Below are positions 59,444-61,900 of a stretch of 64,000 nt of DNA, one piece after another. A model generated the notes under the pieces. That model ran no database searches, had not been told where the DNA came from, and saw nothing but the letters and a program-made list of their open reading frames with translations. The position numbers and the translations under genes are program-made. Source of the DNA: a bacterium (lineage in GTDB: Bacteria; Bacillota_I; Bacilli_A; RFN20; CAG-826); NCBI GenBank assembly GCA_963638555.1, contig CAVHQU010000001.1, positions 26,317-90,316 on the forward strand, read 5' to 3'. How positions within the stretch are numbered: position 1 is the stretch's first letter; each line of letters starts with the position of its first letter.

Positions 59444-59457
59444 TTGATTTGAATCAA
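59444..59457. promoter_or_regulatory. FNR/Crp-family box TTGAT-TTGA-ATCAA upstream of pflB
   Basis: Perfect TTGAT-N4-ATCAA centred about 64 bp upstream of the pflB ATG. Nearly identical in its extended flanks (ACATTGATTTNAATCAAATTT) to the box upstream of pflA. Confidence 0.6.
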
Positions 59458-59571
59458 ATTTTTATATTTTTATTCATCGAGAAAATATTTTTTAAATGAC
59501 TTGCTTTTTTGATGCATTTTATAAGTAAAAAGTCGTATCAAACTGATACGGCTTGATTAGGCGATAAACAA

Positions 59572-59961
59572 TTAAATCTCAAATGCGAAGTGAACGGACC
59601 AAATATTTGGATTTTCGGCCATAGAAGTATAAGAAACCTTAAACGAAGACTTGAAATTGAAACCAAGAGAATCCGTGTCCCTAAAATCTTTCGTGAAATA
59701 CAAACAATCTCCAGCAAAGTTTAAAGTAACTTTATTAGAATCGTAAAAATAACAATCTTTTCCATCGACGTTGGAATAAGTTACTAAAGTTGATTTGTCT
59801 CTTATCGCACCGTAATTAATTGAATTGTATTCTTCAACGGGGATGATTAGGAGACAAATTTCTTCCTTGGCATCATCTTCGGTTTTAGAATTGCAACCCA
59901 AAGAAACAAATGGAACAGCTAACAACAATAAACTAGCAAATATTTTTTTCGTGATATTCAT
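59572..59961 (-). CDS. Small lipoprotein downstream of the S1B peptidase gene
   Basis: MNITKKIFASLLLLAVPFVSLGCNSK lipobox. 129 aa. Lies 13 bp after the peptidase stop. Confidence 0.5.
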   Translation of the reverse strand: MNITKKIFASLLLLAVPFVSLGCNSKTEDDAKEEICLLIIPVEEYNSINYGAIRDKSTLVTYSNVDGKDCYFYDSNKVTLNFAGDCLYFTKDFRDTDSLGFNFKSSFKVSYTSMAENPNIWSVHFAFEI

Positions 59962-59974
59962 AGTACTTTCTCCA

Positions 59975-60943
59975 TTATAAAGCCCAATCTTCTCGAGCGG
60001 TAAGTATCCATGATTCGATGTAGGAAGATATCCTAGAAGATATCCTACAAGCTATATTATAATCTAAACTTGAGCTATGAATTCCTCCGCTATGTATTCC
60101 TACAATTACATTTGAATTACCGTAAAAAATAGGCGCTCCACTCGATCCGGCTAAAGCGTCAATACGATGAAAGAACTTATAATCGGTTAATGTATTTCTC
60201 ACTTTATCGGAAGCATATGCCATTTTACCCGTTGTTCCTTGATAAGCAACCATTCGAACGCTCGTTGTATCGATGCTCATAGAATGGTTCATGGCATCAA
60301 AGTAACCATAAGTATCTCCAACGTTTGAATTTAATTTGCAATATACCCAATCATCAGAGGCGTCACCAGTTCTATAGTTCACACCAACGTTGTAAGTGGA
60401 AACTTCACAAGTTTCAACGCATGTAGATTCAACTGGCGTCCCATCAACTTCTACATAAACTTTAGTCTTGAGTGGCCAACCATAATTAGCACTATAAACA
60501 ACATGTGATGCTGTTAATAAAACATTGGATCCGACTAAAGCGCCAGTGCCGTAAGACGAAAAATCAGCTTTCCCATCCTTATTGCTATCATATTCGCAAA
60601 CCAATTGAACGATCCCTCGATAAGGCCATTTCTTAAGCTGGGAACTTGAAACATCTTGCAAATTGTGATTATAGATTCCGTCACTTGATGTTTTTCCTGA
60701 TGTATCCACATGTGGCTCATACGTAACATCATCTGTACGATCAGGATCAATATCATGTTCAAGAAGTTCATCATAAAGAAAAGATGGTTTTTCACCATAC
60801 TCATACATAATGTGATTAAAGTTCAAATTATTTTGAGTTGCTTGTTCAACCATATTACTAGCAGCCAATGTACTAACAGTTCCTTCGACTTTGTTAGAAA
60901 AACAAGCGCATGCTATGCAAAGAATGCTAATAAACGTTCCCAT
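59975..60943 (-). CDS. Secreted S1B-family (V8/glutamyl-endopeptidase-like) serine protease with N-terminal pro-region
   Basis: Signal peptide. His region GTGALVGSNVLLTASHVV. Ser region DALAGSSGAPIF...VIVGIHSGG, matching the V8 pattern GxSGSPVF...IGIHxGG. Confidence 0.7.
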   Translation of the reverse strand: MGTFISILCIACACFSNKVEGTVSTLAASNMVEQATQNNLNFNHIMYEYGEKPSFLYDELLEHDIDPDRTDDVTYEPHVDTSGKTSSDGIYNHNLQDVSSSQLKKWPYRGIVQLVCEYDSNKDGKADFSSYGTGALVGSNVLLTASHVVYSANYGWPLKTKVYVEVDGTPVESTCVETCEVSTYNVGVNYRTGDASDDWVYCKLNSNVGDTYGYFDAMNHSMSIDTTSVRMVAYQGTTGKMAYASDKVRNTLTDYKFFHRIDALAGSSGAPIFYGNSNVIVGIHSGGIHSSSLDYNIACRISSRISSYIESWILTAREDWAL

Positions 60944-61048
60944 ATCTTATTCTCCTCTTTTAAAACAAGGCCATTATCTATTAAAACTAGCTTTAGGTCA
61001 AGTTTAGTTTATTTTAAGGTCACTGTTTTTCAGCATTGTGTTTTTAAA

Positions 61049-61086
61049 CAAAAAAGCATTCGCCAAATAATCTTGGCTGAATGCCT
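61049..61086 (-). terminator. Terminator after pflA
   Basis: GCATTCGCCAA-ATAATC-TTGGCTGAATGC (one bulge) preceded on the plus strand by AAAAAA, which is a T-run on the minus strand. Confidence 0.55.
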
Positions 61087-61091
61087 TATAA

Positions 61092-61835
61092 TCATTTTAA
61101 ATCATCATCCTTTTTGCCATTCAATATATCTATGGCATTTTGTATGCGTTCCTTTGATGGAGGTTCTACTTCTTTTAACTTATAGTCGTATCCAAGTTTT
61201 TGCCACTTGAATTCACCCATTTTATGGAATGGCAAGACATCTATTCTTTCGACGTTAGACAAAGTTTTTATGAACTTTCTTGTTTCAAATAGATACTTAT
61301 CATTGTCGGAATATCCAGGTAAAAGAACATGCCTAATCCAAATTGGTTTATGAATCTCATCAAGATAATGAAATAAATCTATGATGTTATCGTTAGGACA
61401 AGAGGTTAATTCTTGATGGATCTTAGGATCAATATGTTTTATATCAAGCAAAAGAATATCGGTGTATTTCATTAATTCTTGGAACTTTGAGAAATACGGT
61501 TCTTTTCTTGTGAATGGTTGGCCAGCCGTATCAATACAGGTATTTATGCCGTTCTCTTTAGCCTTTTTAAACAAGTCAATCATGAAGTCGATTTGTAAAA
61601 GAGGTTCCCCTCCAGAAACTGTTATTCCACCTTTATCTCCCCAATATGGGCGGTAACGAAGAGCTTGTTTGATTAAATCATCCGCTTCTTTTTCTTCTCC
61701 GCCATCCATTTTCCATGTATCTGGGTTGTGGCAAAATAGACATCTCATTGCACAGCCTTTAACAAAAATAACGAATCTTATTCCAGGGCCATCAACTGAG
61801 CCGAACGATTCTATTGAATGAATGATTCCTTTCAT
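61092..61835 (-). CDS. pflA: Pyruvate formate-lyase activating enzyme (radical SAM)
   Basis: MKGIIHSIESFGSVDGPGIRFVIFVKGCAMRCLFCHN carries the CxxxCxxC cluster motif. RBS GGAGGAG. Confidence 0.9.
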   Translation of the reverse strand: MKGIIHSIESFGSVDGPGIRFVIFVKGCAMRCLFCHNPDTWKMDGGEEKEADDLIKQALRYRPYWGDKGGITVSGGEPLLQIDFMIDLFKKAKENGINTCIDTAGQPFTRKEPYFSKFQELMKYTDILLLDIKHIDPKIHQELTSCPNDNIIDLFHYLDEIHKPIWIRHVLLPGYSDNDKYLFETRKFIKTLSNVERIDVLPFHKMGEFKWQKLGYDYKLKEVEPPSKERIQNAIDILNGKKDDDLK

Positions 61836-61886
61836 AACTTCTCCTCCTTAGGAAATGAATTATCGAAAGAATAAACCCATTTAACA

Positions 61887-61900
61887 TTGATTTAAATCAA
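61887..61900. promoter_or_regulatory. FNR/Crp-family box TTGAT-TTAA-ATCAA upstream of pflA
   Basis: Perfect TTGAT-N4-ATCAA about 52 bp upstream of the pflA start, with the same extended flanks as the pflB box. Confidence 0.6.

Follow-up and report, generated by a model that had tools for sequence, protein, structure and literature searches.

Twin FNR-type boxes and an adjacent FNR-lineage regulator devoid of cluster ligands at the pyruvate formate-lyase genes of a member of the Bacilli

Described relatives of the regulator

Among the fermentation enzymes of gut and rumen anaerobes, pyruvate formate-lyase is a central one and is sensitive to oxygen; its control in uncultured Bacillota is essentially undescribed. 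We analysed a stretch of 64,000 nucleotides (nt) of contig CAVHQU010000001.1 (assembly GCA_963638555.1, GTDB class Bacilli_A), called the window throughout, in which the genes for the enzyme (pflB) and for its activating enzyme (pflA) are each preceded by a perfect FNR-type box, TTGAT-N4-ATCAA, and in which the gene of a Crp/Fnr family regulator adjoins pflA. This regulator is of the FNR lineage and has none of the four cysteines that ligate the iron-sulphur (Fe-S) cluster of FNR. We consider it fairly probable, on comparative grounds, that it is dedicated to the pflA and pflB promoters, which it would activate in class II mode, that it does not sense oxygen through an Fe-S cluster and that its activity is probably constitutive or controlled by its abundance.

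In Escherichia coli, FNR activates pfl. The focA-pflB promoter of E. coli and the locus of the window share the TTGAT-N4-ATCAA half-sites, the FNR residues E209, S212, R213, G85 and E87, a site centre at about −41.5 (in the window a probable one) and pyruvate formate-lyase as the target. In contrast to E. coli FNR, to which it is 23% identical, the regulator of the window lacks the four ligands and has Lys and Ala in place of E150 and D154; it looks local rather than global, its two or three sites lying close to the regulator gene, and pflA has a box of its own. Bacillus subtilis Fnr is likewise an FNR activator from the Bacillota, acts on anaerobic genes at TGTGA/TTGAT-type sites and is reportedly a permanent dimer in which the cluster controls DNA binding and not dimerisation. 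Its cysteine ligands are C-terminal, whereas the family to which the regulator of the window belongs has an N-terminal C-x2-C-x3-C and a central cysteine as in E. coli, and the clade of the window has none of these. Among solved structures the best match, both by sequence and by Foldseek, is SdrP of Thermus thermophilus (PDB 4ev0). SdrP is reportedly active without an effector, in which case Crp/Fnr activators that need none would have a precedent; it differs from the present regulator in its regulon and in having no evolutionary link to a cluster-bearing ancestor, and the two proteins are 24% identical.

Two further groups of proteins are relevant to the loss of the cluster. The FNR* variants of E. 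coli FNR either dimerise without the cluster (D154A) or are active under aerobic conditions (E150K) (PMC4672761). Ala154 and Lys150 are found naturally across the present family, including its cluster-bearing members, and a like effect in this scaffold would be predicted by analogy. Flp of Lactobacillus casei, FlpA and FlpB of Lactococcus lactis and FlpS of Streptococcus suis are, like the regulator of the window, Gram-positive Crp/Fnr proteins with FNR-type sites and no four-cysteine cluster (PMC5039431). They typically have two cysteines that are thought to act as a redox switch (PMC5039431), whereas the regulator of the window has one, which is not conserved in its clade; they control the arginine deiminase system and other genes and not pfl. 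The nearest relatives of the window regulator are not Flp proteins but cluster-bearing proteins from metagenome-assembled genomes (MAGs) labelled as uncultured Bacilli or Erysipelotrichaceae (proteins P0011–P0013, loci L011 and L012) and from Clostridia.

FNR control of pfl and Crp/Fnr proteins without cysteine clusters are both long known, and nothing is overturned here. What is new, as judged from sequence comparison, is a putatively recently de-metallated branch of a cluster-bearing, pfl-dedicated family of the FNR lineage. The literature searched, which did not extend to curated regulon databases, yielded no account of a family of pfl-linked FNR-type regulators in Firmicutes, and PMC9403272 and PMC3590769 contain nothing on pfl regulation.

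Twin boxes and their conservation at pfl promoters

The window contains exactly two perfect matches to TTGAT-N4-ATCAA, TTGATTTGAATCAA in the pflB promoter and TTGATTTAAATCAA in the pflA promoter (Table 1). Each box precedes its gene; from its centre to the ATG there are 64.5 nt at pflB (59386, minus strand) and 58.5 nt at pflA, in agreement with the original prediction, which had placed a perfect box 50–65 bp upstream of both genes and had given the motif, correctly for the plus strand, as ACATTGATTTNAATCAAATTT. The stop codon of the regulator gene is 108 nt upstream of the pflA ATG (61835, minus strand), close to the 100 bp that had been stated. The similarity between the two promoters extends over a block of 22 nt, AAATTTGATTyAAATCAATGTT, of which 21 positions are identical, and decays beyond it.

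About 0.5 perfect boxes are expected in a sequence such as the window, and at least two were found anywhere in 9 of 100 shuffles, both figures ignoring their placement; for two matches in two promoter windows of 100 nt the probability is about 6e-7, given a shuffle density of about 8e-6 per nt. A position weight matrix (PWM) that had been trained on external loci only was scanned over the window. In gene orientation it gave 32.0 bits for the pflA box and 31.1 bits for the pflB box; the next-best match scored 10.8, and no further regulon site above this value was found in the window. Boxes with one mismatch occurred at chance frequency (8 found, 9.6 expected). Placement, the counts in related loci given below and the gap in PWM scores together rule out that the pair arose by chance. 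One of the one-mismatch boxes, TTCATATTAATCAA at 56922–56935, overlaps the start of a ZIP-family transporter gene (56126–56935) and was discarded as a chance-level match with a low PWM score.

A protein search with the window regulator gave 160 relatives in three tiers. The first (68–97% identity) comprises proteins from uncultured 'Mollicutes'/Bacilli MAGs, all without the N-terminal cysteine cluster. The second, P0011–P0013, is about 62% identical and has C-x3-C-x2-C and two central cysteines. The third (about 40–50% identity) is from Lachnospiraceae, many of them Butyrivibrio, Ruminococcaceae, other Bacilli and Acidaminococcus, and mostly has C-x2-C-x3-C and two central cysteines. A scan of a genome collection yielded 80 loci (L001–L080; 1.37 Mb in all); because homology of the regulator was the criterion of choice and a number of them are close relatives, the counts that follow are not of independent events. 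In 61 of the 80 loci pflA and/or pflB lies within 10 kb of the regulator gene, usually in the order regulator–pflA–pflB and directly adjacent, which extends the linkage seen in the window. These loci contain 83 perfect boxes, where about 2.4 are expected from base composition, and in 72 of the 83 cases pflA or pflB follows within 300 nt. Of the 61 pfl-bearing loci, 53 have one or more perfect boxes in front of these genes. Conservation of the boxes in orthologous pfl promoters had been named in advance as an observation on which the original prediction would stand or fall, and conserved they are.

The positions of the boxes are conserved as well. They lie 62–68 nt upstream of the pflB orthologues in L001–L003 and L008–L012, and 58–60 nt upstream of the pflA orthologues in L001–L003 and L008–L010. 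Twin boxes at distances like those of the window are thus present in L001–L003 and L008–L010, the closest relatives with pfl nearby, all of which lack the cysteines. Twin boxes are also found in the cluster-bearing Bacilli L017–L021 and in many Ruminococcus loci; Butyrivibrio mostly has a single box, on pflB. A recent duplication as the source of the twin boxes was rejected, since relatives without the insertion that separates pflA from pflB in the window (L001, L008–L010, L017–L021) have a box on both genes, and since the same 22-nt block recurs across distant taxa while its two central bases vary. Control of pfl by Rex was rejected too: no TTGTGAA-N4-TTCACAA site with up to three mismatches was found near pfl, and matches occur at chance level.

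We define, operationally, a pfl-linked family of the FNR lineage in Bacillota, which is apparently undescribed, by a regulator gene that adjoins pflA/pflB and a TTGATT-N2-AATCAA box in front of pflA and/or pflB. The window has both features, with a box upstream of each of the two genes. Some relatives keep the regulator while the pfl genes have moved or been lost: in L006 and L007 the regulator (10001–10690 in both; 81% identity) lacks the cysteines and is preceded by an M18 aminopeptidase gene, neither pflA nor pflB lies within 10 kb, and perfect boxes are absent. A sister branch of the family (43–50% identity) has a TTGATTnnAATCAA box, with PWM scores of 25–32 bits, 19–74 nt upstream of a gene for a SufC-like ABC ATPase (L016, 10687–10708; L022, 10789–10810; L026, 10714–10735; L057, 2098–2119). 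In L016, the only locus of this branch with open reading frames (ORFs) listed, the box is just downstream of the regulator gene, a SufB/D-like gene comes next and no pfl gene is nearby. Fe-S cluster assembly seems to be a second conserved class of target of the family.

For the architecture of the promoters, an information profile was made from 72 unique promoters (of 74), anchored on the box and oriented by gene. It has a sharp TG-n-TAnnnT peak, an extended −10 element, at box positions 34–42 (n = 72). A-tracts occupy box positions −12 to −10 and −3 to −1. A −35 hexamer cannot be recognised, and the box overlaps the place where one would lie. With the −10 hexamer placed at −12 to −7, the box would be centred on −41.5. 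This is the class II position, from which FNR and CRP contact RNA polymerase at the promoters that they activate. The pflA promoter of the window has a candidate −10 hexamer that fits the family signal exactly, and in the pflB promoter the candidate TAAAAT would put the centre of the box at about −40.5, within 1 nt of the family-wide signal (Table 1). Two minor features of the profile are an asymmetry of the operator, with a G at box position 16 on the promoter-proximal flank that is 92% conserved and no mirror-image C upstream, and an enrichment of the dinucleotide CG at the inferred +1/+2 (box positions 49–50).

A dimer that covers the −35 region might also block RNA polymerase, and the regulator would then be a repressor of pflA and pflB, as the overlap of box and −35 region would allow. 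We regard this as improbable. An extended −10 without a −35 hexamer is a hallmark of activator-dependent class II promoters, the exact spacing of −41.5 is conserved where a repressor could tolerate variable positions, and it is from the same position that E. coli FNR, in the textbook case, activates pfl. Class II activation is accordingly the mode of action adopted in what follows.

The regulator's own expression may depend on a box of the same kind. A third box is present in L001–L005, 771–780 nt upstream of the start of the M18 aminopeptidase gene; in L001 (7955–7968) it is 61.5 nt upstream of the ATG of a gene resembling udk, the uridine kinase gene. Its position upstream of udk in these five loci would imply positive autoregulation of a udk–M18 peptidase–regulator operon in the closest relatives. 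The window ends inside the udk-like gene that heads this operon.

Loss of the cluster ligands and what may replace oxygen sensing

The regulator matches PF00027 (E = 2.7e-17, residues 40–128), a beta-roll resembling cyclic nucleotide-binding domains that is also seen in its AlphaFold2 model, and PF13545, the Crp-type helix-turn-helix (E = 1.9e-9). Against the NCBIfam FNR model NF008365 it scores 41 bits, below the cutoff of 228. It contains exactly one cysteine, C108, and no N-terminal cysteine cluster. C108 aligns with an Ala of E. coli FNR that is not a ligand and is Phe in P0009; other cysteines are sporadic within the clade. The E. coli fnr product of the K-12 record was aligned with the family, to which it is 23–29% identical, and the ligands C20, C23, C29 and C122 were assigned following the structure paper on A. 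fischeri FNR (PMC4672761). The C-x2-C-x3-C of the family aligns with C20, C23 and C29, and the second of its central cysteines ('vC.I') with C122. At these four positions the window regulator has D, L, Y and G in a curated alignment; in a larger MAFFT alignment, in which the N-terminal columns shift, it has a gap, L, S and G, again without a cysteine. On both counts the original prediction stands: it had described a protein with a single cysteine and no N-terminal cysteine cluster and had concluded that this is not a [4Fe-4S] FNR.

An oxygen-labile Fe-S cluster might still be held through ligands other than cysteine, as has been proposed for Lactococcus FlpA (cited in PMC5039431). Here this is very improbable, with D, L, Y and G at all four ligand positions and with no conserved set of His, Asp or Cys in the clade that could serve as a replacement. 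The N-terminal residues are moreover the fastest evolving of the protein: in the first 18 residues, the former cluster-binding arm, non-synonymous change is 3–4 times faster than in the rest.

Family statistics were taken over 116 members of at least 205 aa. All four ligands are present in 66 and none in 32. The clade of the window, with 11 members, is monophyletic and entirely without the four ligands, although some members keep a single relic cysteine at the third ligand position. The nearest outgroup (P0011–P0013 and L011/L012, 62% identity) has the same synteny, M18 peptidase–regulator–pflA–pflB, and retains the cysteines. Cysteines kept in a syntenic outgroup and a relic cysteine in the clade mark ligand loss, and not gain, as the direction of change. 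By the same comparison the regulator of the window is recently derived from a pfl-dedicated family of the FNR lineage that bears the cluster, and it does not belong to a separate family without cysteines such as Flp or ArcR. Ligand-deficient clades are scattered over the tree, up to 25 among the 116 proteins; this number is the maximum, since some entries (e.g. L015, L035, L070) lack the ligands only because metagenomic gene calling truncated them or misplaced their start codon. The pfl boxes persist in the ligand-deficient lineages L014, L025, L034, L038, L077 and L080. In P0011–P0013, L011 and L012 the N-terminal spacing is C-x3-C-x2-C and not the C-x2-C-x3-C usual in the family; next to the ligand-less clade, the arm that binds the cluster may here represent an intermediate or have been remodelled.

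The residues with which FNR reads DNA and supports class II activation are invariant. The equivalents of E209, S212 and R213, which read TTGAT from the recognition helix, and of G85 and E87 in the loop of activating region 3 are found in 116 of 116 members. In the dimer helix K150, L151 and A154 (E. coli numbering) are present in 115 of 116, where E. coli FNR has E150 and D154, which there make the dimer interface metastable and dimerisation dependent on the cluster. The ratio of non-synonymous to synonymous substitution rates (dN/dS) against five orthologues is 0.03–0.06, i.e. strong purifying selection.

Could the boxes be bound mainly by another protein? Only 64 kb of the genome is visible, several FNR paralogues that share TTGAT-N4-ATCAA sites are known from one genome, for instance in Herbaspirillum (PMC5934665), and the box recurs at the suf genes of the sister branch of the family. 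A cluster-bearing Crp/Fnr paralogue encoded elsewhere might thus be the main protein at the boxes, and the adjacent protein a competitor, an anti-activator or a heterodimer partner. This seems unlikely to us: in L001–L010 the protein without cysteines is the only member of the family within 20 kb while the twin boxes are perfectly kept, the boxes persist in the independent ligand-less lineages named above, and the residues for class II activation, G85 and E87, are retained. We thus return to the adjacent regulator as the protein that would act at the boxes.

As we picture it, the two boxes would be the operators of the adjacent regulator, which would bind each of them as a dimer and recruit RNA polymerase without an Fe-S cluster. 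Dimerisation would probably be intrinsic, by virtue of the Lys and Ala at the positions of E150 and D154, and such cluster-independent dimerisation would explain why loss of the cluster is tolerated and recurrent. The organism, an anaerobe, would then express pfl constitutively or at a level that follows the abundance of the regulator, whose own operon, in the closest relatives, would be boosted through the third box. Dimer binding and class II activation are the well-supported part of this scheme; what would replace oxygen sensing is suggested with less confidence.

Among the three possibilities that had been named for the signal (redox, a nucleotide, or nothing), constitutive activity, i.e. 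nothing, appears the best supported. Sensing of cyclic AMP (cAMP) in the manner of CRP is disfavoured, as none of the five contact residues is conserved: E72, R82, S83, T127 and S128 of CRP correspond to I, Y, P, A and N in the window regulator. A redox switch based on the single cysteine is disfavoured by the lack of conservation of C108 in the clade.

The AlphaFold2 model of the regulator has a mean predicted local distance difference test (pLDDT) score of 84.5, and its sole low-confidence part is the loop of residues 91–100 (pLDDT 56). Its template modelling (TM) score against full-length holo-FNR is 0.71–0.73, with similar values for other Crp/Fnr structures, and Foldseek gave 0.70–0.73 for CRP, GlxR, Clr and FNR. 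Searches of solved structures by sequence and by fold returned generic Crp/Fnr matches only, at 19–24% identity, and did not discriminate between subfamilies. The loop (about 62340–62369 of the window) carries an insertion of 3–4 residues (KGKK) in the clade of the window and of 2 residues in P0011–P0013. It is the equivalent of the phosphate-binding cassette of CRP, and the position equivalent to E72 of CRP has changed from E to I or V.

Many Crp/Fnr proteins without cysteine clusters are sensors of ligands, among them CooA, DNR, NtcA and CprK. It is therefore possible, if doubtful, that the same sites and the same class II activation are kept here and that the beta-roll has turned to a different input, for instance a metabolite of fermentation, haem or a similar redox-active cofactor, or a protein partner, so that pfl would still be expressed conditionally. 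Strong purifying selection over the whole sensor domain speaks for it, as do the changes specific to the clade, namely the insertion of 2–4 residues in the loop and the replacement of E at the position of E72. Yet no residue that contacts cAMP is conserved, the inserted loop is the very part that the model leaves at low confidence, the sequence names no ligand, and independent ligand-less lineages do without these changes in the loop.

Several points weigh against a dedicated, probably constitutive activator of pfl and have to be set beside the evidence above. The case for binding, activation, oligomeric state and cofactor content is one of comparative genomics and homology. The equivalence of K150 and A154 is drawn from an alignment at 23–29% identity, ungapped between the invariant S148 and S162, and since both residues also occur in cluster-bearing relatives they do not by themselves explain the role of the cluster there. 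The −10 elements, in the window and in the family, are assigned by consensus. The third box is absent from L006–L012, and in the organism of the window it would fall near position 64,687, beyond the end of the visible DNA. For a constitutive activator, a dN/dS of about 0.05 over its entire sensor domain is slightly unusual, and with a beta-roll so strongly conserved a signal could still be received. Lastly, a Crp/Fnr paralogue that has the cluster and the same specificity could be encoded outside the window.

A broader proposal, which we put forward tentatively, is that of a natural loss of sensing: a pfl-dedicated FNR family of anaerobic Bacillota with an FNR*-like dimer helix would have shed its ligands many times independently while keeping operator, geometry and targets, and the outcome would be either a constitutive, autoregulated promoter-specificity factor or a beta-roll through which a newly acquired input, metabolic or redox, controls fermentation to formate in uncultured Bacilli of the gut and rumen. 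The regulon is compact, with one regulator, an operator of 22 bp and two or three promoters, and nature offers matched pairs of orthologues in the same neighbourhood, cluster-bearing in L011/L012 and cluster-less in L001–L010. Such pairs could show what becomes of an Fe-S oxygen switch after loss of its cofactor, and whether helices like those of E150K and D154A make the loss tolerable.

Organisation of the locus

The features of the locus are collected in Table 1. The stop codon of the M18 aminopeptidase gene overlaps the start of the regulator gene by 4 nt, from which we conclude that the two probably form one operon; this arrangement is kept in L001–L012. The hairpins after pflA and before the pflB promoter suggest that pflA and pflB are transcribed separately, each from its own operator. 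A search of the whole window against Rfam gave nothing at the gathering threshold.

Table 1 Features of the pfl locus (coordinates refer to the window)
Feature	Coordinates	Strand	Basis and remarks
Candidate −10 region, pflB promoter	59417–59428	−	TATACT (59428–59423), then TAAAAT (59422–59417)
pflB, pyruvate formate-lyase, 749 aa	57137–59386	−	TIGR01255, 1176 bits (cutoff 994); PF02901 and PF01228
FNR-type box, pflB promoter	59444–59457	.	Perfect match; extended block 59440–59461
Terminator-like hairpin and T-run between inserted genes and pflB promoter	59534–59550	−	Sequence
Two genes inserted between pflA and pflB	59572–60943	−	Outside the conserved cluster
Lipoprotein-like ORF, 129 aa	59572–59961	−	Inserted between pflA terminator and pflB promoter
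Trypsin-like serine protease, 322 aa	59975–60943	−	Weak PF00089/PF13365 matches
Terminator-like hairpin after pflA	61062–61077	−	Sequence
pflA, pyruvate formate-lyase activating enzyme, 247 aa	61092–61835	−	TIGR02493, 305.6 bits (cutoff 231.75)
Candidate −10 hexamer GATAAT, pflA promoter	61859–61864	−	Box positions 37–42, exact fit to family −10; box centre −41.5
FNR-type box, pflA promoter	61887–61900	.	Perfect match; extended block 61883–61904
Crp/Fnr regulator, FNR lineage, 231 aa	61944–62639	−	PF00027, PF13545, ligand mapping; none of the four cluster ligands; recognition helix RPETVSRK
M18 aminopeptidase gene	62636–63907	−	PF02127, 377 bits
M18–udk spacer (short), then 3' end of uridine-kinase-like gene	63908–64000	−	Compared with L001, 8023–8733

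The locus of this Bacilli type (75–91% identity) is also carried by the 'cleanbin' MAG records L002, L003, L005, L006, L007 and L009, the titles of which name Bacteroides uniformis, Sodaliphilus, Hallerella, Lachnospiraceae, Faecalibacterium prausnitzii and Escherichia coli; these names are evidently unreliable.

Homologues of the inserted protease and of the lipoprotein-like ORF were found in none of the 80 related loci. In L002 about 5.6 kb is inserted between the regulator gene and pflA, and L003 has insertions on either side of pflA. The spacers of the cluster are recurrent points of insertion, yet each pfl gene keeps its own box.

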